Part shown: piece after piece, positions 5,909-57,063 of the stretch | Position numbering within the stretch: the first letter of the stretch is position 1 | How the letters are laid out: each line of letters starts with the position of its first letter | From: an uncultured Candidatus Saccharibacteria bacterium | GTDB taxonomy: Bacteria > Patescibacteriota > Saccharimonadia > Saccharimonadales > UBA10212 | Reading direction: 5' to 3' | NCBI GenBank assembly: GCA_965231085.1 | Contig: OZ246413.1 | Location: 344,971 to 408,970 of the forward strand | DNA: 64,000 bases | The notes under the pieces: generated by a model | The model's database searches: none | What the model was told of the DNA's origin: nothing | The model's input: the letters and a program-made list of their open reading frames with translations, nothing else | Program-made: the position numbers and the translations under genes

Positions 5909-6100
5909 TATCAGTCAATTATATCTTAAGCCGTAAACAGTGAACAGCCACACCTTGTGCATTTAGCCTGTTGATTATATAATTTCGGCATCTTTGTTGA
6001 GGTAAATGTTTCACACCTGAAGTTCGCTTCCAAAGATGTACATTTTGGCAAGCAGACAAAGACCAGATCGCAATCCGACCACAAGATTGGAGGATCCGAA

Positions 6101-6349
6101 ATGGCAGTAGACGTATTAACCGACCTGGAAGCACTGAAGCACAGGCGCCTGGCGGACAGCTACCGGCTCGGCAGCTGCACGGCCATCGTCGAGCGCGGCG
6201 AGTTCTGCGGGCGGCCCAATGTCCGTACCAGTGGGCAGGGTCACACCTGCGTGTCGGAGCACGCCTGCCAGGCGTGTGGCCGCGAACCAAGCGCTGCCGG
6301 CCCGAGGTGCAAGATGTGCCCGGCTTACGGTGAAGATCATGGCGAGTGA
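6101..6349 (+). CDS. Hypothetical small Cys-rich protein (82 aa), high-GC island
   Basis: RBS GGAGGA lies 6 nt upstream of the ATG and third-codon positions are strongly GC-biased. Seven Cys include CQAC and CKMC pairs (zinc-ribbon-like). The stop overlaps the next start (ATCATGGCGAGTGA). Confidence 0.45.
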   Translation: MAVDVLTDLEALKHRRLADSYRLGSCTAIVERGEFCGRPNVRTSGQGHTCVSEHACQACGREPSAAGPRCKMCPAYGEDHGE

Positions 6350-6806
6350 CTCAGACGCTCTCGCACGGGGGTTCGATCTCGAGCTCTTCGGTGGCACCGG
6401 TGGGCCTCGCCCCTACGCCAGCCCGGCCTTGGACACGTCCAAGTGGATTCCATGGCCGGCCGGCCCCGGGCTGTGCGACCGCTGTGGCAAGCATGCCGAG
6501 CAGCGAGCCAAGTCGATCATCTTCCATGATGATCGGGAGGAAGAGTACGTCGGCTACTGCCAGGCGTGCTGTGACCGCTTCAAGTGGGAAAAGGCACTCA
6601 GCCAACTCCCGACTGGGCCGATCGTCGTCTTCCCGGGCGATCAGCTACAGCTAGCCACCCTGGTCACGCTCCACGAACTCTTCATCGAGTCGAGGGGCTG
6701 GAAGCGGGTCAACCCTCCCGGCTACTGGAAGAACCCTCGGAGGTTCAGGCCGCCGCTGAAGCTTCACGATGCGGTGCGCTATGAGATCGAGACCGAGTCA
6801 GCCTAG
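6339..6806 (+). CDS. Hypothetical zinc-ribbon-like protein (155 aa; alternative start at 6219 gives 195 aa)
   Basis: Its start is translationally coupled to the upstream ORF and third positions are GC-rich. It carries CDRCGKH...CQACCDRF (CxxC...CxxCC). A perfect 11-bp stem hairpin follows at 6828-6860. Confidence 0.45.
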   Translation: MASDSDALARGFDLELFGGTGGPRPYASPALDTSKWIPWPAGPGLCDRCGKHAEQRAKSIIFHDDREEEYVGYCQACCDRFKWEKALSQLPTGPIVVFPGDQLQLATLVTLHELFIESRGWKRVNPPGYWKNPRRFRPPLKLHDAVRYEIETESA

Positions 6807-6827
6807 CTACACCGCTGACCACCCGAC

Positions 6828-6868
6828 GTAGAGACGAGTGAACATATGCCTCGTCTCTACTGTTTGCG
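6828..6868 (+). terminator. Intrinsic-terminator-like hairpin after the island's small ORF pair
   Basis: GTAGAGACGAG-tgaacatatgc-CTCGTCTCTAC is followed by TGTTTG. Confidence 0.45.
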
Positions 6869-6937
6869 AGAATAAGTCTGCTTGCCATTAACCTAATTAT
6901 AAAAAGAAACTCTCCATGTTGAGAGTTCATATCCTGT

Positions 6938-7282
6938 ATGGTGGAACTAAACGGAACACTCTCGAACCCTGAAGTACGGGTTGAGGTTCTGGAGCTTTTT
7001 GGCTTGGTTGAGCTGATTCTGACCAGAGGGCCCAGTAGCTCAGAACGTCCTGATCCACCCAAGCGGGCTGGAGAGATCAAGCAAACGGTGATCCATGTGC
7101 TCCAGATGGCCGAGAAGCCAATGAGGGTCATGGACATCCATAGAGCCTGCGAGGAGTACCTAGACAGACCAGTCAACCGGTCTACAGTCTCGGACTGCCT
7201 GATCAAGCACTCAAAGGGACAGAGGCAGTTGTTTGTAGCTACAAGTCGAGGGCTCTACTCGAAAATTGAATTCATCGCCTAA
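6938..7282 (+). CDS. Hypothetical small protein, winged-helix-like (114 aa)
   Basis: Intermediate GC. The helix-turn-wing pattern (IHVLQMAEKPMRVMDIHRACEEYLDRPVNRSTVSDCLIKHSKGQRQLFVATSRGLY) suggests a DNA-binding fold. No confident family assignment. Confidence 0.35.
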   Translation: MVELNGTLSNPEVRVEVLELFGLVELILTRGPSSSERPDPPKRAGEIKQTVIHVLQMAEKPMRVMDIHRACEEYLDRPVNRSTVSDCLIKHSKGQRQLFVATSRGLYSKIEFIA

Positions 7283-7401
7283 AACCACGAACTTGTTCAT
7301 AGTCTTGGGTGAAGCCCCAGGATTAACGTACCTGGGTATTTAAGACCTTGGTGGTCTTACGGCTCTTGCGAGCAATGTTCGAACAGCCGATAACGGAGAG
7401 C

Positions 7402-8079
7402 TCAGGCGCGGCTGGCAGCCACGTACAGCTTGACCTCATCGGCCTTCTCACGGTCGATCTTGCCAGTCTCGATGTAGTGGTCGAGGAGCTGGGAGAGCGT
7501 GAATGCTGAGATGACTCGGATGCCCTCCTCGTCGGTGAGCCACTCCGAGCCTCCCTGCTCACGATCGACCAGCACCAGGAGGTCCCGAACCTCCATGCCA
7601 GCTAGCTCAAGGATCGACACAGCCTCGATCTTGCTGTCGGCCTGGGTGATCAGGTCGTCGACCAGCAGAACCTTGCCGGGCAGATCCCAATTTCCTTCCA
7701 GAAGACCGGCGATCCGTCGTAGGTCTGCGGACTCTTCCTTGTAGAGCCGGATCTGATTCACCGGTGACCACGAGACGAGGCGCTTCATCAGCGCGTCGGC
7801 AAGCGGTTCACCGGCATTCGGGATGCCCGCCACGTACCGAAAGTCGAGACCTTTGTTCAAGTGGATCATCCCATAGAGCAGGTCAGCGATCTGTTCGATC
7901 AGCTCAGGTGTCAGCGGGCCCGGTTTCGGGTTGTCGGGAGTCCGCAGGTTGAGGTAGATCGGCGACAGTGGTGCATCCGGCTGGATCTCATGGAGCTTCA
8001 GTCGGAAAGCGCCGAACTTGATCGCGCCGACCTCGAAAAGCTGGTCGGCGACCGTAGCAAATCTTCCTTCGAGCAACAA
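7402..8079 (-). CDS. pyrE: Orotate phosphoribosyltransferase (type-I PRTase fold)
   Basis: 225 aa. The PRPP-binding motif VLLVDDLITQADSKIEA corresponds to VMLVDDVITAGTAI of E. coli PyrE, and LVLVDREQGG matches LISLDRQERG. The N-terminal KFGAFRLK block is also present. It has a TTG start immediately after the pyrF stop (operon). High GC. Confidence 0.7.
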   Translation of the reverse strand: MLLEGRFATVADQLFEVGAIKFGAFRLKLHEIQPDAPLSPIYLNLRTPDNPKPGPLTPELIEQIADLLYGMIHLNKGLDFRYVAGIPNAGEPLADALMKRLVSWSPVNQIRLYKEESADLRRIAGLLEGNWDLPGKVLLVDDLITQADSKIEAVSILELAGMEVRDLLVLVDREQGGSEWLTDEEGIRVISAFTLSQLLDHYIETGKIDREKADEVKLYVAASRA

Positions 8080-8087
8080 TCCTCCTT

Positions 8088-9068
8088 TCAGATCTGAGCC
8101 AGCACGATCGAGATGTCGTTGTGCATGGCCGAGGTTGCAGACCTCGCGGCTTCGGCGAAGTCCTCGCCATCACTGGCGAAGATGATGCCGCGAGAGCCGT
8201 TGATGATCATGCCCTGGTCGTGGCTGTTGACGCCCGCTCTCACGGACGCTTCCAGCTCCCCGCCTTGAGCCCCGATCCCGGGGATCAAGATAGGCATGTC
8301 GCCGACGATCTTCCGAACCTCAGCCAGTTCGGCAGGGTATGTCGCGCCAACTACGACAGCGCAGTTGCCGTTGTAGTTCCAGCCGCGCGTGATGTTCCTG
8401 GCCACGATCTGATACAGCGGCACTTCGCGCTCTTCGTAGTCGTAGAGCTTGCCCGGGTCGCCTTGCTCAGTGATCCGCAGATCCTGGAACTCGCCGGCAC
8501 CGGGGTTGCTTGTCCGAACGAGGACGATGACACCCTTGTCCATCTGGTCGAGGAACGGCTTCATCGCCTCCATACCGAGGTATGGATGCACCGTCACGGC
8601 GTCAGCGGCCTGAGCCGCCGCAACGTAGCCGGCGTTTGTGTTGCCGATATCGCCCCGCTTGTAGTCGAGGATGACCGGGACCTCGGGCGCTACATTGTGG
8701 ATGTAGTCGATCGTGTCTTTCAGGGCCACCAACCCCGAGAAGCCGAGCGCCTCGTAGAACGCCGAGTTCGGCTTGTACGCGCAGACGAGGTGCTTGGTCG
8801 CGTCGATGATCGCTTCGTTGAAGTCGAGAATCGTGTCGCCGAGGATCTCTGCCATGTCGCCATAGCTCAGACCCTCCGGCAGATCCTCTCCTCGCTGAAG
8901 AACCGCGAAGGCGGCCTGGGCGATCAGCATCTCGTCCACGCTGTACGACCCGCGGCTCTTGATGTGCCGAACGGGCAGCTTCTGGATGTCGCTGTCGAGA
9001 CCGACGCAGACGAACTTGCCCTCAGCCCAACGGGCTTGAAGCAAGTCCATGAAGTTGCGTTGTGACAT
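8088..9068 (-). CDS. pyrF: Orotidine 5'-phosphate decarboxylase, long (type 2, actinobacterial-like) form
   Basis: 326 aa with VGLDSD, DYKRGDIGNT (the D-x-K-x-x-D OMPdecase signature) and ILIPGIGAQGG. RBS GAGGAGA precedes the ATG. High GC. The plus-strand 314-aa ORF over the same DNA is a shadow. Confidence 0.8.
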   Translation of the reverse strand: MSQRNFMDLLQARWAEGKFVCVGLDSDIQKLPVRHIKSRGSYSVDEMLIAQAAFAVLQRGEDLPEGLSYGDMAEILGDTILDFNEAIIDATKHLVCAYKPNSAFYEALGFSGLVALKDTIDYIHNVAPEVPVILDYKRGDIGNTNAGYVAAAQAADAVTVHPYLGMEAMKPFLDQMDKGVIVLVRTSNPGAGEFQDLRITEQGDPGKLYDYEEREVPLYQIVARNITRGWNYNGNCAVVVGATYPAELAEVRKIVGDMPILIPGIGAQGGELEASVRAGVNSHDQGMIINGSRGIIFASDGEDFAEAARSATSAMHNDISIVLAQI

Positions 9069-9383: not shown

Positions 9384-9468
9384 TGGTGGGGACGAAAGGA
9401 CTTGAACCTTCATGGGTTGCCCCGCTAGCTCCTAAGGCTAGTGCGTCTGCCAATTTCGCCACGTCCCC
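9384..9468 (-). tRNA. tRNA-Leu (anticodon UAG), CCA encoded
   Basis: Cloverleaf: acceptor GGGGACG/CGTCCCC, 3-bp D stem, anticodon stem CTAGC/GCTAG with loop CTTAGGA (anticodon TAG), long 13-nt variable arm, T loop TTCAAGT, 3' ACCA. Its 3' end faces the GC island. Confidence 0.85.
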
Positions 9469-9635
9469 TCGTTGAAGCAAAAGTTTCTACATTTCGCTTC
9501 CAGACACATCCGAAAGCTCAATCTTAATCTTTGCTTCTCCTCTCATTTTTGCAAAAACCTGCACAGGTGTTTTCACAAAAATGGTAATCGCACAGGGGTT
9601 ATTTTACCTTAAATCCTGCTATTTTTAAAGGGCCC

Positions 9636-12056
9636 TTATTGCTTATCTAGATTTAGCTTTAATTTGCCAACTGCCGCTTCAGCCATAAGCGCTAAGTTCC
9701 GTTTTACGTCTTCCATTTTGTTCAGCCCATAGCCTAGCGAATAGCCTGAATATTCGTCTAGGATTTCATCCATTATTTCAATTCTTTGTGCTAGATCGTA
9801 TTGACCAATAATCTGATGCATAATTATGCCCATTTGGGTTTCGTCAATAATTAGGTCAGCCTCCGAGTCTCGGGCGATATCTCTGCCGACGCGTCCTGCT
9901 AGCCGAAGCAATCTTAGATTGTAAATCGATTGATCTCTTTGCCACTCTTCCCAGCTATCAGCAGGATTTTCGTATTGTCTCGCCCGAGCAAGATAAGTCG
10001 CCGCTCTGTCTTTTGTGTAGGCTCTAGGTATTTTTGGCGCAATGAAGCCACCAGAATCGGAGGCTATATTCCTAAGCTGTGTAAGGCTACCAAGTCTAGC
10101 CAGGGCTTGAGATTCAAGCTGTCTGACTCTTTCTCTAGTTAGGTCCAGCTCATAACCGACCTGGTCGAGTGTATATGGTTCCTTGCCATCAAAACCAAAC
10201 CTTTGTCTTATAATTATCGCCTCTCTTTCAGGCAAGGAATCCACAACTGAGGCTATCTCTTGGGTTAACATCTCTTCTTCTGCTATTTCCTCGGTAGTCT
10301 GATGGTCAGGATTACGAGCATCTACAACCTGCAATCCCAGGCCCGATGGGTAGCCATCAAAACCCCATAATGCTAGTCTGGCCATGTCTTTAGCGCTACC
10401 ATGCCTGGCAAGATTTTTACGTTCAATAAAGTCTTCGATATCTTCTACCTCGGGGACGACTCGTTGCTCCCGAACGTACCGGCGCATAAAGCGGCCGATT
10501 TCCCGGGCGGTAGTGGCTGGAAAGCCTATTGAGCTTCCTGGTACTTCTGGTAGGTCCCACTCTTTTTCCAAAATTTGGTTATACCGCCTGATATCACGAC
10601 TATGAGTATCAGTGCGCTTAGAGTTGTATTTTACTCTAAGTTGTTTTAGTAAATAGGCATCATTGGCTAGAAGGTTAAGCCATAACTCGGAATTAATAAT
10701 CCGCTCAAGATTTGACCGCTTTGAAGTAGAGCCACCATTACCGACCCGCTCTGATCCAATTACCCGTCCGAGATGAACCGATTTTTCATCCATCACGTCC
10801 AGGCTAGTGTACTGATATTTGTTGGGTGAAACATCCATAAAATCAACGATAATCGACTCTAAGTTACCCGGTTTTTTACGAAGTACCCTACCTAGTTCTT
10901 GGGTCTTTCGAACACGCGAGGTAGTTGGGCACGTAGCGATTAAAAAGCTAGCTCGGCTGCTATCCCAGCCTTCGGCTATGGCTTTTACATATGTAAGAAC
11001 GTCAATTTGCCCGTTTTCAAAGGCCTGTAATATTCTTTGATTTTCTTCTTGGCTCAAGAAACTGCCGACCGCTCGGGCTCTAATAAATTTTTTAGTACCG
11101 TCTGCAAGCGTTATAAAACTGCCGTCCAGCTCATCGGCTAGAGACCGAGCGTGAACAGAATTCTCCCCCGGTACACAGCTAATAATTCCCTGGCGGCCAT
11201 CGGCTACAAAATTCCGGGCAAACTCTAGAGCACTGTCGTTTCGAGCCTTGAGGTCTATTAGTTTTTCAAGTTCCCGTTGCGTGTATTCGTCTGCATATTC
11301 GTCTAAGTCAGGGATTTCGGCATCGGTGGTATAAAGCAAGCATGTTACCGGCGCAACTAAATCGTTTTCGATAGCTTCTTTGAGTGATAATTCATGAATT
11401 GGTGTTTCAAAAATTTCGTTGACACTTTTTCCAACGCGATATTTTGGAGTGGCAGTAAAACCAATTTTTGTGGCTTTTGGAGATATGCTAATTAAATTAC
11501 GCTTTGTCACTGCCCCAAGACTCTTATGTGCCTCGTCAGCCAAAATAACGTCAAACTCTCCCAGCTCACCAGTCTGAACAAAGTTATTCATTCCAGCGTA
11601 GGTCGCAACGACTACCTTGTCGGTTTTTGTAGCTTTTGATCCACCATAATGCTTGCCTACGTCTGCTGGGCTAAGTCTTTGGGCAAATTTTGCCAAGCCT
11701 TTATCTTCAATATCGCCGGACAGCTGGCTAACCTGAGTTCGCATGTCTGCTAAAACCAAAACTCTTAAGCCGCTTCCGGCAAATATTTCGGCTAGTTTGG
11801 CAATTAGATATGTTTTTCCGGTTGATGTTGGTAGCTCAACATATCCCCGGTTATAACCCATAGCAAGGGCTTCTGAAATATCAAAAAAAACCTCCTGTTG
11901 ATGAGGGTATGCCTCGTCCTGATCATCAAGCCAATGTTCACTTCTGAAGTATTGGTCTAAGGCAAGAGCGGGGCCTTCTAGATTTTCTTCTTGCGAGAAA
12001 ACTCGTACGCCAGATTCAAACGGGGACGAGTTTGCTCGCTCTATAGCCGTATTCAC
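9636..12056 (-). CDS. SF2 (DEAH-type) helicase fused to a sigma-70 region 4 domain
   Basis: 806 aa. The N-terminus has helicase motifs I (PTSTGKTY), II (ILADEAHK), III (FTATP) and VI (QELGRVLR). Residues about 600-655 read LPEREAIIIRQRFGFDGKEPYTLDQVGYELDLTRERVRQLESQALARLG, closely matching sigma-70 region 4.2 (compare E. coli RpoD [48 protein letters not shown]). The C-terminal roughly 150 aa are unassigned. Confidence 0.75.
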   Translation of the reverse strand: MNTAIERANSSPFESGVRVFSQEENLEGPALALDQYFRSEHWLDDQDEAYPHQQEVFFDISEALAMGYNRGYVELPTSTGKTYLIAKLAEIFAGSGLRVLVLADMRTQVSQLSGDIEDKGLAKFAQRLSPADVGKHYGGSKATKTDKVVVATYAGMNNFVQTGELGEFDVILADEAHKSLGAVTKRNLISISPKATKIGFTATPKYRVGKSVNEIFETPIHELSLKEAIENDLVAPVTCLLYTTDAEIPDLDEYADEYTQRELEKLIDLKARNDSALEFARNFVADGRQGIISCVPGENSVHARSLADELDGSFITLADGTKKFIRARAVGSFLSQEENQRILQAFENGQIDVLTYVKAIAEGWDSSRASFLIATCPTTSRVRKTQELGRVLRKKPGNLESIIVDFMDVSPNKYQYTSLDVMDEKSVHLGRVIGSERVGNGGSTSKRSNLERIINSELWLNLLANDAYLLKQLRVKYNSKRTDTHSRDIRRYNQILEKEWDLPEVPGSSIGFPATTAREIGRFMRRYVREQRVVPEVEDIEDFIERKNLARHGSAKDMARLALWGFDGYPSGLGLQVVDARNPDHQTTEEIAEEEMLTQEIASVVDSLPEREAIIIRQRFGFDGKEPYTLDQVGYELDLTRERVRQLESQALARLGSLTQLRNIASDSGGFIAPKIPRAYTKDRAATYLARARQYENPADSWEEWQRDQSIYNLRLLRLAGRVGRDIARDSEADLIIDETQMGIIMHQIIGQYDLAQRIEIMDEILDEYSGYSLGYGLNKMEDVKRNLALMAEAAVGKLKLNLDKQ

Positions 12057-54824: not shown

Positions 54825-55355
54825 TTACTTTGAGTAGTTGGCAATTGCCTCAGATATAACTTTTTTGGCTGCTTCAGCGTTGCCCCAACCTTTAAACTCA
54901 ACTTTTACACCCTGCCAGTTGTTCTTCCAGTCTTTGTAGTGGGTGTAAAAATGTTCTACCCGTTGCTTAAAAGCGGGATCTAGATCTTCAACTTCTTTTA
55001 CTGAGTCTTTACTAATATCTTTAGCCGGTACGCAGATCAACTTTTCATCGCCCTCACCATCATCAATCATATAAAGCACACCAATTGGTCTGGCTGGCAC
55101 GACTGCACCGTGAACTACCGGCTCATCAATTACCAGCAGAACATCCAGTGGGTCGCCATCATCACATAGGGTTCCAGGCACATAGCCGTAGTCTGCCGGG
55201 TACGTTGCAGTTGTGGCATTAACTCTATCTAATGTCAGTCGCCCAGTACCTTTATCAATTTCATATTTGTTACGGCCACCGCCTTTTTGAATTTCAATAA
55301 TAACATTCACTTCATCAGGTGCATTTTTACCAGTGGGAACAGGTTGGTTTGACAT
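54825..55355 (-). CDS. ppa: Inorganic pyrophosphatase
   Basis: 176 aa with DGDPLDVLV and YGYV motifs. Confidence 0.85.
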   Translation of the reverse strand: MSNQPVPTGKNAPDEVNVIIEIQKGGGRNKYEIDKGTGRLTLDRVNATTATYPADYGYVPGTLCDDGDPLDVLLVIDEPVVHGAVVPARPIGVLYMIDDGEGDEKLICVPAKDISKDSVKEVEDLDPAFKQRVEHFYTHYKDWKNNWQGVKVEFKGWGNAEAAKKVISEAIANYSK

Positions 55356-55499
55356 CTTGGCCTCCTAAACTTTCTAGTACAAAATCGTACTCTTGTTAAT
55401 TAGTATTTCCCGCTCAACAACTCCCTACAACGAAAGTTTGGCGGCTGAATCTCCTTATTCTGGTTTTATTTTACAGTATAGACTGGCCTTATAAAAGAA

Positions 55500-55535
55500 A
55501 AGAGGGCCGATCCGTGCCGAAGCACGAACCGACCC
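55500..55535 (-). terminator. Strong intrinsic terminator ending the tRNA operon
   Basis: On the minus strand: GGGUCGGUUCGUGC-UUCG-GCACGGAUCGGCCC followed by UCUUUUCUUUUAU. Confidence 0.65.
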
Positions 55536-55542
55536 TGTAGAA

Positions 55543-55615
55543 CTGCGCGCGCGGGGTTCGAACCCGCGTTACCTGCACCGTTGGCAGGGGTTCTAGGCCA
55601 CTGAACTAGCGCGCA
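55543..55615 (-). tRNA. tRNA-Arg (anticodon ACG) with atypical A33 and G37
   Basis: Acceptor TGCGCGC/GCGCGCA, D arm GTTC...GAAC, anticodon stem CCTGC/GCAGG with loop CAACGGT, T loop TTCGAAC. No CCA is encoded. It directly abuts the upstream tRNA. Confidence 0.65.
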
Positions 55616-55688
55616 AGCGGCTGAGAGGGCTCGAACCTCCGACCTCCCTCGATCATGAGGGCGCTCTAGCCTACTGAGCTACAGCCGC
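55616..55688 (-). tRNA. tRNA with an abnormal 6-nt anticodon loop (CAU or GAU family; Met/Ile-like body)
   Basis: The body closely resembles tRNA-Ile(GAU) (D arm TAGCTCAGTAGGCTAGAGC; AGGTCGGAGGTTCGAGCCCTCTC). The anticodon region CCCTC-ATGATC-GAGGG is one nt short of the canonical 5-7-5 arrangement. Confidence 0.5.
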
Positions 55689-55740
55689 GGGCAAATCTTG
55701 GTGCATATGCTGCAACTACAATTTCTACCCAGAACTACTA

Positions 55741-55814
55741 AGTCGGTGATGGGGCTCGAACCCACGACCTCCTGCATGGCAAGCAGGCGCTCTAGCCAAC
55801 TGAGCTACACCGAC
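55741..55814 (-). tRNA. tRNA-Gly (anticodon GCC)
   Basis: Acceptor GTCGGTG/CACCGAC, anticodon stem CCTGC/GCAGG with loop TTGCCAT, T loop TTCGAGC. No CCA is encoded. Confidence 0.8.
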
Positions 55815-55865
55815 CGGCAAATCTTTTGGAGCTACTACTAGCTACGACAAATTGTTGCCACTTAA

Positions 55866-56030
55866 TGGGCGTGGGAGGAATCGAACCTCCGACCTCTAGT
55901 TTCTCTATCTGACGTTTCAATTTGATGTCTTGAAACTTCCCCGAGCGTCCCCGGGACTCTCAATCATCTTTACTTTATCAGCAAAACAGAGAAAAACAAC
56001 TAGCACTCTAACCAACTGAGCTACACACCC
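55866..56030 (-). tRNA. tRNA gene interrupted by a roughly 90-nt insertion in the anticodon arm (putative intron or disrupted tRNA); identity undetermined
   Basis: The 5' half GGGTGTGTAGCTCAGTTGGTTAGAGTG-CTAGT and the 3' half ACTAG-AGGTC-GGAGGTTCGATTCCTCC-CACGCCC-A form a canonical acceptor/D/T/anticodon-stem cloverleaf. Between them lie 98 nt that fold into helices of their own (UUCUCUG...UAGAGAA; GUUUCAA-9nt-UUGAAAC; CCCG...CGGG). Confidence 0.55.
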
Positions 56031-56082
56031 TTAAACCAAAAATTATTCTACACCCAAATAGCCTATATCGCAACTATGTTTT

Positions 56083-57063
56083 CTAGTCGCCGTAAAGAGT
56101 TTGGACGGCCTTGTTGCTAGTCTTTTGGTGATTCTCAATATATTCACGGATCATAAGCGCCGCTGTCGCACCTTCGCCAACCGCACTAGCTATCTGCAAG
56201 GTTGCTCCACTGCGCACATCGCCAGCAGCAAAGATCCCTGGAACCTTGGTCATTAGGTGTTGATCGGTCTTAATAAAATTACGCTCATCAAGCTCCACGC
56301 CGCTTCCAGCCAAGAACTTAGTGTTTGGGTCTAGGCCCACAAATACAAACACACCGTCAGTTACAAAATCTACTTTTTTACCGGTAGTCTTATCTGTGCC
56401 GACAACTTTTATCACTTTCTTACCGTCGCCAACAATCTCGTCAGTTGTAGTGTTCATATGTACGGTAATTTTATCAGCATGTTTTTTTAAGTCTTCTTGC
56501 AGTACATCGCTGGCTCGCAAGCTGTCGCCACGAACCAGTATATCTATATGCTTAGCAAATTTGGTTAAGAATATGCCTTCTTGAATTGCCGAATTGCCGC
56601 CACCCACCACCACAATTTTTTTATCTCTATAAAATGCACCATCGCAGGTTGCACAGTAATGTACCCCTCGAGCGTAATATTCTTGCTCGCCGGGCACACC
56701 AATTTTGCGGTACTCGCTACCAGTTGCCACCAGCACGGCTTTAGCCAGATAATCTCCGCTAGTAGTATCAAGCCTGATAAGTTCGCCCTCGCTCTTTACG
56801 CCCATAACTTCACCCAGCTCGATCTTGGCTCCAAAACGTTCAGCTTGCTTACGCATAGCCTCAGCTAGTTCTAAGCCAGCAATCCCTTTTTCAAAGCCCG
56901 GGTAGTTATCTACCCAGTCAGTCACCGCGGCTAGACCGCCAATTGCCGCTTTTTCAAATAATGTAGTATCGATATCCTCCCGGCAAGTATAAATAGACGC
57001 GCTCAGGGCAGCTGGCCCCGCCCCCACAATGACTAGGTCATGAATCTTTTTTTCTTCCGCCAC
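56083..57063 (-). CDS. trxB: Thioredoxin reductase
   Basis: 326 aa with FAD/NADPH GxGxxG motifs and the redox-active CATC. Confidence 0.85.
   Translation of the reverse strand: MAEEKKIHDLVIVGAGPAALSASIYTCREDIDTTLFEKAAIGGLAAVTDWVDNYPGFEKGIAGLELAEAMRKQAERFGAKIELGEVMGVKSEGELIRLDTTSGDYLAKAVLVATGSEYRKIGVPGEQEYYARGVHYCATCDGAFYRDKKIVVVGGGNSAIQEGIFLTKFAKHIDILVRGDSLRASDVLQEDLKKHADKITVHMNTTTDEIVGDGKKVIKVVGTDKTTGKKVDFVTDGVFVFVGLDPNTKFLAGSGVELDERNFIKTDQHLMTKVPGIFAAGDVRSGATLQIASAVGEGATAALMIREYIENHQKTSNKAVQTLYGD

Follow-up and report, generated by a model that had tools for sequence, protein, structure and literature searches.

The window analysed here, a stretch of 64,000 nucleotides from an uncultured Candidatus Saccharibacteria bacterium, contains an interrupted tRNA gene, named tRNA1 below, at positions 55866..56030 of the minus strand (165 nt). 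Judging from its sequence, this gene is a copy of tRNA-Ile(GAU) in which the anticodon arm has been pulled apart, an intact anticodon loop being preceded by 17 and followed by 74 additional nucleotides. The reading favoured here, which is given an even chance, is that of a non-decoding tRNA-shaped RNA or of a disabled extra copy.

The body of this tRNA is complete. The full Rfam model RF00005 (positions 1-71) was matched end to end at 56030..55866 with 51.7 bits for a gathering score of 29 (E 3.4e-8 for the whole window), 97-98 nt being skipped in the anticodon loop, and all 21 of the 21 stem pairs are intact. The 5' body (55999..56030, minus strand), as delimited from the Rfam match and the sequence, comprises the acceptor 5' strand GGGUGUG, U8 and A9, the D arm (GCUC-AGUUGGUUA-GAGU), G26 and the 5' strand CUAGU of the anticodon stem. 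The 3' body (55866..55900, minus strand), delimited in the same way, comprises the complementary strand ACUAG, the variable loop AGGUC, the T arm (GGAGG-UUCGAUU-CCUCC), the acceptor 3' strand and the discriminator A; CCA is not encoded. The acceptor stem GGGUGUG/CACGCCC has 7 bp with a single U4.G69 pair, and the conserved tertiary bases U8, A14, G18G19, A21, C48, UUCGA and C61 are all there. The anomaly lies between positions 31 and 39, which are separated by 98 nt: the 31-39 pair does not directly close a 7-nt loop with U33. A preliminary description, made from the letters of the window, had reported a bacterial tRNA gene whose anticodon arm is broken up by roughly 90 nucleotides with a structure of their own. 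The RF00005 match and the 98 nt between the stem strands bear this out, and the details that had been given arm by arm (acceptor stem with one G-U pair, D arm, T arm, anticodon stem, 98 nt) all hold on the sequence. The context of the gene was missing from that description: tRNA1 heads a lineage-specific operon of four tRNA genes, two other members of which have defective anticodon loops.

The gene escapes the usual detection tools. It was missed by ARAGORN under default settings. Running this program with an intron model, a check proposed earlier, does produce an intron call, but on a shifted stem and with an implausible identity (output 'Ser(AGA), 89-nt intron'). This Ser(AGA) identity is not credible for a class I body with a short variable arm. 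The sequence of tRNA1 was found identical in two independent Logan assemblies (SRR13076588 and SRR14271365) and is therefore not an assembly artefact.

The anticodon, previously considered unreadable, can be located precisely. The sequence CUGAUAA, present within the insert at 55975..55981 (minus strand), is the canonical anticodon loop of tRNA-Ile(GAU) and equals the loop of genuine tRNA-Ile genes. What had been described as one insertion is accordingly better described as two segments placed on either side of this loop. Segment A (17 nt, UGUUUUUCUCUGUUUUG, 55982..55998, minus strand) separates stem position 31 from loop position 32, is preceded by U and has G as its last base. Segment B (74 nt, 55901..55974, minus strand) lies between loop position 38 and stem position 39. 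Repeated A's allow an alternative register for segment B, at 36/37, where it is preceded by U36 and ends in G; in this register both segments have a U just before them and a G at their end. The loop CUGAUAA occurred in 0.36% of 20,000 dinucleotide shuffles of the 98-nt region, and the relaxed patterns YUGAUAA and YUGAUAR in 1.5% and 2.9% of them. Its presence within the insert is thus unlikely by chance, at a level of 0.4-3%.

When segments A and B are both removed, the remaining sequence (GGGUGUGUAGCUCAGUUGGUUAGAGUGCUAGUCUGAUAAACUAGAGGUCGGAGGUUCGAUUCCUCCCACGCCCA, 74 nt) is called tRNA-Ile(gat) by ARAGORN. The best full-length matches of this shortened sequence are genuine tRNA-Ile(GAU) genes from Phyllobacterium (84%), Neisseria (78%) and the Streptomyces phage Byblos (87%). 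The Phyllobacterium and Neisseria genes are each directly followed by a tRNA-Ala gene, and the arm of the Byblos gene, GAGUG-CUCGU-CUGAUAA-ACGAG-AGGUC, is only one base pair different from that of tRNA1. The isoleucine identity was first inferred from the acceptor stem and the D arm, independently of the embedded loop. The exact GGGTGTG acceptor together with the D arm was found in 12 viral-contig matches, of which 10 are canonical tRNAs (8 Ile(GAU), 1 Val and 1 Lys) and 2 are truncated tRNA-like genes. Because the embedded loop and the best matches of the body both point to isoleucine, the gene is considered to derive from tRNA-Ile(GAU), its stem and its loop having both survived but been parted on both sides.

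The 98 nt found between the strands of the anticodon stem are more structured than expected by chance (z = -3.2 against 200 dinucleotide shuffles, one of which folded equally well). They are predicted to form an irregular rod, of which the minimum free energy (MFE) structure has a low ensemble frequency and uncertain details. The apical hairpin of this rod (55924..55968, minus strand), on which the MFE and centroid structures agree, consists of the helices GAUG..CAUC and UUGAGA..UUUCAA and of a G+C-rich tip, CCCGGG-GACG-CUCGGG. In the remainder of the MFE structure, a continuous 3' strand, GUCAG-AUAGAGA-AACUAG, is paired with three 5' pieces, CUAGUU, UCUCUGU and CUGAU, which are parted by the bulges GUUUU and UUUG. 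Segment A, through UCUCUGU/UUCUCUG, would in this manner pair with the 3' end of segment B. The pairing of UUCUCUG with UAGAGAA had been presented earlier as a direct prolongation of the anticodon stem: the 7 bp can indeed be drawn and their 3' strand abuts the stem, but the 5' strand stands 5 unpaired nucleotides away from it. The pentamer GUCAG (55909..55913, minus strand) is the predicted partner of bases C32-U36 (CUGAU) in the stranded loop, one of the pairs being U36.G, in the MFE structure and at a place where the centroid differs. According to this model, the anticodon of the unspliced arm would be buried in pairing and displaced by about 12 bp beyond its normal distance from the elbow, and an unspliced RNA could not decode because its anticodon would be both too far away and paired. 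The rod is described from a single genotype, for which no homologue was found, and any importance of the rod is putative.

tRNA1 is the first of four tRNA genes found between trxB and ppa, with a promoter and a terminator. The putative promoter is of the sigma-70 type (TTGCGA-17-TAGAAT, 56045..56073, minus strand; 9 of 12 positions in the consensus scan), its -10 hexamer ending 14 nt upstream of the first tRNA, and its -10 region aligns with the ppa promoter region of a relative (L003). The second gene, tRNA2 (55741..55814, minus strand; Rfam 68.3 bits), is a tRNA-Gly(GCC) according to ARAGORN too. Its loop has the normal 7 nt and its acceptor stem is unusual (U2-A71, C3-G70); its anticodon arm is also found in ordinary tRNA-Gly genes of viral contigs. 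The third gene, tRNA3 (55616..55688, minus strand; Rfam 51.9 bits), has a glycine-type acceptor (GCG.../U73) and a 6-nt anticodon loop, AUGAUC. It is reported as 'tRNA-???' by ARAGORN, and its best full-length phage matches are tRNA-Gly genes. The fourth gene, tRNA4 (55543..55615, minus strand; Rfam 48.6 bits), follows tRNA3 with no spacer. ARAGORN calls it Arg(ACG), its loop CAACGGU carries A33 instead of U33, and no match to it was found among phages. The operon is closed by an intrinsic terminator (55493..55536, minus strand) recognized by a terminator scan and on the sequence, with a 15-bp stem and a UUCG loop followed by CUUUUCUUUU.

Across the four genes of this operon, 84 of the 84 stem pairs are intact and all three defects fall within anticodon loops. 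These loops represent about 10% of the tRNA sequence, and lesions placed at random would hit them three times out of three in about one case per thousand. This distribution argues against random decay and is the reason why the defects are not regarded as ordinary decay. The operon as a whole is also unlike a set of decoders, since splicing cannot rescue the 6-nt loop of tRNA3 or the A33 of tRNA4. The only other tRNA of the window, a canonical Leu(UAG), has an encoded CCA and the T loop UUCAAGU, whereas the operon genes have no CCA and T loops of the UUCGAnn type. From this comparison, which is a sample of one, comes a hint that the operon could be foreign.

The operon is surrounded by housekeeping genes: pheS/pheT, those of an FKBP isomerase and a glutaredoxin, trxB, ppa, gap, rpiB, rpe and tkt. 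Genes for a transposase, an integrase, an RNA ligase or a splicing endonuclease were found neither in the 64-kb window nor in about 16 kb of flanks, and no further tRNA was found in the approximately 8 kb added on each side of the window. The comparison with orthologous loci, which had been suggested at the outset, found the operon at the trxB/ppa site of no relative examined. The closest trxB loci in GTDB all belong to Candidatus Saccharibacteria/Saccharimonadales, which places the organism among the CPR bacteria, and a tRNA beside trxB was present in 0 of 80 such Saccharibacteria loci (all 80 scanned with ARAGORN and the first 20 with Rfam). The operon is missing also from the other contigs reached through TrxB and Ppa homologues. 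The nearest lead to a closer locus is a Logan contig of 1431 nt, whose TrxB is at least 90% identical to that of the window. In the closest relatives, whose TrxB is 86-88% identical, the gap between trxB and ppa measures 25-40 nt; in other relatives it holds one or two GDPD genes, or nothing. The Ppa of the window is about 80% identical to that of the GDPD-carrying lineages versus about 40% to that of the closest TrxB relatives. Because the identities of Ppa and TrxB disagree and the contents of the gap vary, the trxB-ppa spacer is considered a recombination-prone slot and the operon a lineage-specific one. In the favoured reading, the operon is a recent acquisition in this variable slot, possibly of foreign origin.

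The same slot upstream of ppa is occupied in another Saccharimonadales lineage (locus L244) by an RNA gene of 125 nt (2781-2905), which has a promoter and a terminator of its own. The acceptor stem of this RNA has 7 bp, CCA is encoded and the T arm is perfect; there is no D arm, and an 83-nt rod takes the place of the anticodon arm. It gave no Rfam or ARAGORN match and has no sequence similarity to tRNA1.

Neither for the interrupted gene nor for its insert was a homologue found in any of the collections searched (GTDB loci, viral contigs, phages and plasmids). Scans of viral contigs with the gene halves, the junctions, the loops of the neighbouring tRNAs and the predicted spliced arm returned nothing relevant. 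BLAST searches against phages and plasmids returned only generic matches to tRNA halves, and a 'split' match in Vibrio phage D479 turned out to be two adjacent tRNAs. A metagenome scan with the pattern TAGCTCAGYTGGTTAGAGYGCTAGT was dominated, among the matches listed, by Bacteroidota-type tRNA-His genes. The spurious ORFs translated from the locus gave, against protein databases, nothing beyond one irrelevant match. L139 and L185, two loci that share the anticodon stem of tRNA1 and carry inserts of some 100 nt with a CAU loop motif, were rejected as homologues; they appear to be unrelated archaeal-type multi-intron tRNAs, with the T loops UUCAAGU and UUCAAAU. Two viral tRNA-like genes, L106 and L115, have CAG(A)UAGAGAA in common with the 3' junction of tRNA1, which was judged a chance resemblance. 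The intron mode of ARAGORN was dropped for these surveys, as it mostly fuses neighbouring tRNAs.

According to the favoured reading of a non-decoding tRNA look-alike, tRNA1 would be transcribed with three other tRNA-shaped RNAs from the sigma-70-type promoter of the operon, as its consensus matches suggest. The flawless acceptor, D and T modules would allow its ends to be trimmed like those of any tRNA, by RNase P on the 5' side and then by 3' trimming and CCA addition. Segments A and B are predicted to pair with each other and with the anticodon to form the irregular rod of about 98 nt, with C32-U36 paired. An RNA armed with such a rod would present no anticodon in the ribosomal A site. It would presumably not be charged by IleRS either, because IleRS reads the anticodon loop of tRNA-Ile. 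The anticodon loops of tRNA3 and tRNA4 would likewise be unusable. The gene may be a surplus copy that no longer works, or it may have been retained for a tRNA mimic that serves outside translation, for example as a decoy or a stable scaffold. The 84 intact pairs out of 84 favour the mimic somewhat over junk. An inactivated tRNA was among the possibilities raised from the start and is still the leading reading. The fold is kept and the anticodon region is unusable, the combination by which pseudo-tRNAs are recognized.

Several observations go against this reading of a non-decoding look-alike. The exact loop, the exact restoration of tRNA-Ile and the U/G boundaries are also what would be expected of real introns, and tRNA introns at odd positions, overlooked by annotation tools, are unusually numerous in Patescibacteria (PMC13011429). 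Two mutually complementary additions flanking the loop are hard to explain by simple insertion mutations. If the genome has no other tRNA-Ile(GAU) for the codons AUU and AUC, tRNA1 must work. The corresponding alternative is that of two tiny introns, one of 17 nt at 31/32 and one of 74 nt at 36/37 (equivalent to 38/39), excised by an unknown mechanism, protein-dependent or RNA-catalysed, with joining of the exons into a working tRNA-Ile(GAU). This double excision yields a flawless tRNA with real Ile genes as its top matches, from an insert that holds the exact canonical loop and a gene that has its own promoter. The group I boundary rule (U before, G last, 7-nt loop restored) is respected by both segments only in this two-segment reading, a coincidence over short distances that carries modest weight. 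The predicted CUGAU:GUCAG helix would moreover mark the 5' junction of the 74-nt segment with a U.G pair, as in group I introns, and a pairing of the intron with the anticodon resembles archaeal and eukaryal pre-tRNAs. Against these points, there is no catalytic core and no Rfam match, and the lengths of 17 and 74 nt are to be compared with a minimum of 184 nt among the 333 bacterial tRNA group I introns surveyed, which span 184-894 nt (Nakagawa et al. 2026, PMC13011429). The guide-like GUCAG, the sole complement of CUGAU, lies 6 nt from the 3' end of its segment, where a group I P1 helix would have it at the 5' end. An exhaustive search over all junction pairs detected no bulge-helix-bulge motif giving a tRNA product. 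To our knowledge, neither a protein-spliced tRNA intron nor a splicing endonuclease has been described in bacteria. Four precise cuts and two ligations would be required, the defects of tRNA3 and tRNA4 are incurable by splicing, and no homologue was found. Excision of two miniature introns is therefore regarded as unlikely. The stronger claim that the 17-nt and 74-nt segments form a new class of bacterial tRNA intron in CPR, neither group I, group II nor bulge-helix-bulge, and yield the tRNA-Ile(GAU) of the cell, is considered slightly less likely still.

Other readings are based on a single insert. In bacterial tRNAs, no class of intron but group I is known from the anticodon loop, and group I introns are enriched in Patescibacteria (PMC13011429). 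Their U/G boundary rule can be satisfied here as well, which would suit a group I intron that has degenerated or been miniaturised, whether it still splices itself or is a dead remnant. The insert had nevertheless been judged earlier not to be a recognisable group I intron, and rightly so. Neither RF00028 nor any ribozyme model matched it at E<=10 on a search space of 801 nt, and its approximately 91 extra nucleotides amount to half the length of the smallest of the known cases (PMC13011429). Neither a P3-P9 core nor a G-binding helix can be drawn. An enumeration showed that, with the true stem, every single excision places A or G at position 33, so that no single intron of any kind restores a 7-nt loop with U33. 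The Rfam scan recommended for the insert matched no family: models for small self-cleaving ribozymes, tmRNA and YrlA gave no match at E<=10 except noise (tmRNA_permuted, 19 bits for a gathering score of 47, T arm only). A group I remnant is thus close to refuted and very improbable indeed. A miniature mobile or palindromic element of about 91-98 nt, landing in the anticodon loop and destroying it, would have left CUGAUAA as a coincidence. The ends of the insert are complementary in the manner of terminal inverted repeats (UUCUCUG...CAGAUAGAGAA), the entire insert folds into a hairpin, and the content of the slot differs between lineages. A second copy would be expected from such an element, but none was found in the window and the 16 kb flanking it, which together cover about 80 kb of the 669-kb contig, in about 560 kb of related Saccharibacteria genomes or in the phage and plasmid collections. 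There is no target-site duplication and no direct repeat at the junctions, the ends being partly complementary, and no transposase lies nearby. CUGAUAA has a chance of only 0.4-3%, and an insertion should have left the original loop bases on either side of the element, where the actual flanks (U... and ...GAGAA) make no Ile loop. The loop could not come to lie in the middle through a single insertion. On these grounds the miniature element evoked in the preliminary description is not supported; it is considered rather improbable. Two further candidates were discarded by eye: a C/D-box guide RNA, as terminal C and D boxes are missing, and a small ORF (16 aa, MIESPGDARGSFKTSN), which has no ribosome-binding site. 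A search for antisense targets in the window gave only one 14-nt match, in the same sense and attributed to chance. That the true explanation lies beyond the readings formulated here is a minor possibility that still deserves to be kept in mind.

The significance of tRNA1 depends on its processing. If it is spliced, bacteria would possess a type of tRNA intron independent of the group I core, and the completeness estimates of CPR genomes that count tRNAs would miss such genes. If it is not spliced, it provides a clean natural tRNA body carrying a foreign rod, among look-alikes altered in their anticodon loops alone. Such a loop-only alteration would point to selection for the tRNA shape without decoding, as in decoys for tRNA-targeting enzymes or stable RNA scaffolds. 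In both cases, ARAGORN and similar tools miss the gene or misname it (Ser-AGA), and Ile-GAU becomes visible only once the embedded loop is recognised.

The arrangement of tRNA1 matches none of the families tested, and no interrupted bacterial tRNA with its cognate loop kept between two short flanking segments was found in the literature searched. Among the closest known introns are the group I tRNA introns of Patescibacteria (PMC13011429), found in the same phylum and in the anticodon loop, missed or miscalled by ARAGORN, with U/G boundaries that can be drawn and an excision that leads to a canonical tRNA. Unlike these introns, which measure 184-894 nt, the additions to tRNA1 measure 17 and 74 nt, with no core and no covariance-model match, and form two segments that flank the loop instead of one within it. 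The host tRNA is also different, Ile(GAU) here versus Asn, Asp, Met, Phe, Tyr and Thr in the Patescibacteria cases of Table 1 of that survey (PMC13011429). The protein-spliced tRNA introns of archaea and eukaryotes have similar sizes, and their pairing with the anticodon is similar to that predicted here. In archaeal tRNA genes, introns are possible at positions of the 31/32 or 38/39 type and more than one may occur per gene, as in the archaeal-type L185, with inserts in both the anticodon and T loops, and in L139, another multi-intron example. tRNA1 differs from them in having no bulge-helix-bulge giving a product, and its T loop and genome are bacterial.

Other resemblances concern RNAs that keep a tRNA shape outside decoding. 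The tRNA-Other of Bacillus cereus (PMC3399842) combines, like tRNA1, an intact tRNA fold with an unusable anticodon region, a variable or acquired locus and a possible role outside translation. Its anticodon arm is however of ordinary length, whereas that of tRNA1 has 98 nt with the cognate loop sequence inside. In tmRNA and the YrlA Y RNAs (PMC4201824), tRNA-like acceptor and T modules are likewise set on a long helix that replaces the anticodon arm. In contrast to both, tRNA1 gives no Rfam match to these families, has a complete D arm and ends in an acceptor stem; it also has neither the G3.U70 pair nor the reading frame of tmRNA. The YrlA RNAs are permuted relative to the layout of tRNA1.

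Unexplained rRNA insertions of CPR bacteria were reportedly described by Brown et al. in 2015. These and the intervening sequences (IVS) of bacterial rRNA resemble the present case as helix-extending insertions in a structural RNA gene, here again of a CPR organism, with no recognisable intron features. However, rRNA fragments work without re-ligation and a tRNA cut in its anticodon arm would not, and the helices of tRNA1, with at most 7 continuous bp, would be poor substrates for RNase III. The topology of tRNA1 is identical to that of the engineered 'tRNA scaffolds', a laboratory design in which, as Ponchon and Dardel are said to have shown in 2007, a foreign hairpin is carried on the anticodon stem and the chimera is processed and stabilised like a tRNA. 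We know of no natural bacterial counterpart. The resemblance between tRNA1 and the RNA of the L244 locus may be coincidental; it nevertheless suggests that rod-armed tRNA-shaped RNAs in Saccharimonadales merit a systematic search. Together, these two RNAs may represent a natural 'tRNA scaffold', an unrecognised class of non-coding RNA of the Saccharimonadales.

The intergenic spacer separating trxB from ppa (positions 54825-56083 of the window) was compared with the corresponding Saccharimonadales loci (L003, L236-238, L244-246 and L262-269) and behaves as a variable slot. Four states of this spacer were observed: it is empty, or it contains one GDPD gene, two GDPD genes together with a tRNA-like RNA, or the operon of four tRNA genes. 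The neighboring ppa gene itself occurs as two types among these loci. The Ppa protein of the window shares about 80% identity with its counterpart in distant lineages and only about 40% with the Ppa of its closest TrxB relatives. On the basis of these sequence identities, a gene replacement is implied.

Two members of this operon, both on the minus strand, combine a tRNA fold with unusual features. tRNA3 (55616-55688) forms a perfect cloverleaf and has a glycine-type acceptor (G1-C72, C2-G71, G3-C70, U73) together with an anticodon loop of 6 nt, AUGAUC. No identity was assigned to it by ARAGORN, and its top phage matches are tRNA-Gly genes. tRNA4 (55543-55615), designated Arg-ACG by ARAGORN, begins immediately after the tRNA3 discriminator with no spacer. 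Its loop, CAACGGU, carries an A at position 33 instead of the near-universal U, its variable loop is 4 nt long, and a BLAST comparison with phage tRNAs returned no match. All four operon tRNAs lack an encoded CCA and have T loops of the form UUCGAnn; the canonical tRNA-Leu(UAG) of the window (9384-9468, minus strand), compared with them, encodes its 3' CCA and has the T loop UUCAAGU.

This tRNA-Leu(UAG) gene adjoins a G+C-rich island (6000-9000; 60-66% G+C versus about 44% for the genome), which comprises a pyrF-like OMP decarboxylase gene, a phosphoribosyltransferase gene and ORFs without a Pfam match, and looks like horizontally acquired DNA. The same Saccharibacteria genome also encodes a heliorhodopsin (PF18761; positions 1-131 of the flanking sequence L248), about 8 kb past the right-hand end of the window (coordinate 64000).

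Other tRNA-shaped genes were found outside this genome. In another Saccharimonadales lineage, the slot upstream of ppa, as for the window operon, is occupied by a 125-nt RNA gene (L244, 2781-2905, plus strand) flanked by its own promoter and terminator. In this RNA the acceptor spans 7 bp, CCA is encoded by the gene and the T arm reads UCGGG-UUCAAGU-CCCGA; the D arm is absent, an 83-nt rod replaces the anticodon arm, and neither Rfam nor ARAGORN gave a match. Within the tRNA arrays of two viral contigs, tRNA-like genes (L106, about 8459-8530, plus strand; L115, minus strand) have in common with tRNA1, the interrupted tRNA-Ile(GAU)-derived gene of the operon, the acceptor and D arm GGGTGTGTAGCTCAGTTGGTTAGAGC. 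They possess a G3.U70 pair, and their anticodon arm is reduced to a 12-nt mini arm, UUCAGUAGAGAA. Two metagenome contigs, apparently archaeal judging from their UUCAAGU/UUCAAAU T loops, contain insert-bearing tRNAs (L185, 7364-7723, minus strand, and 9526-9661, plus strand; L139, 3268-3435, minus strand). Their anticodon loops hold inserts of about 100 nt, each embedding a CAU-type loop motif; L185 additionally has a tRNA-Glu that carries about 63 nt of inserted sequence, and a large T-loop insert that pairs at its ends with the insert in the anticodon loop.
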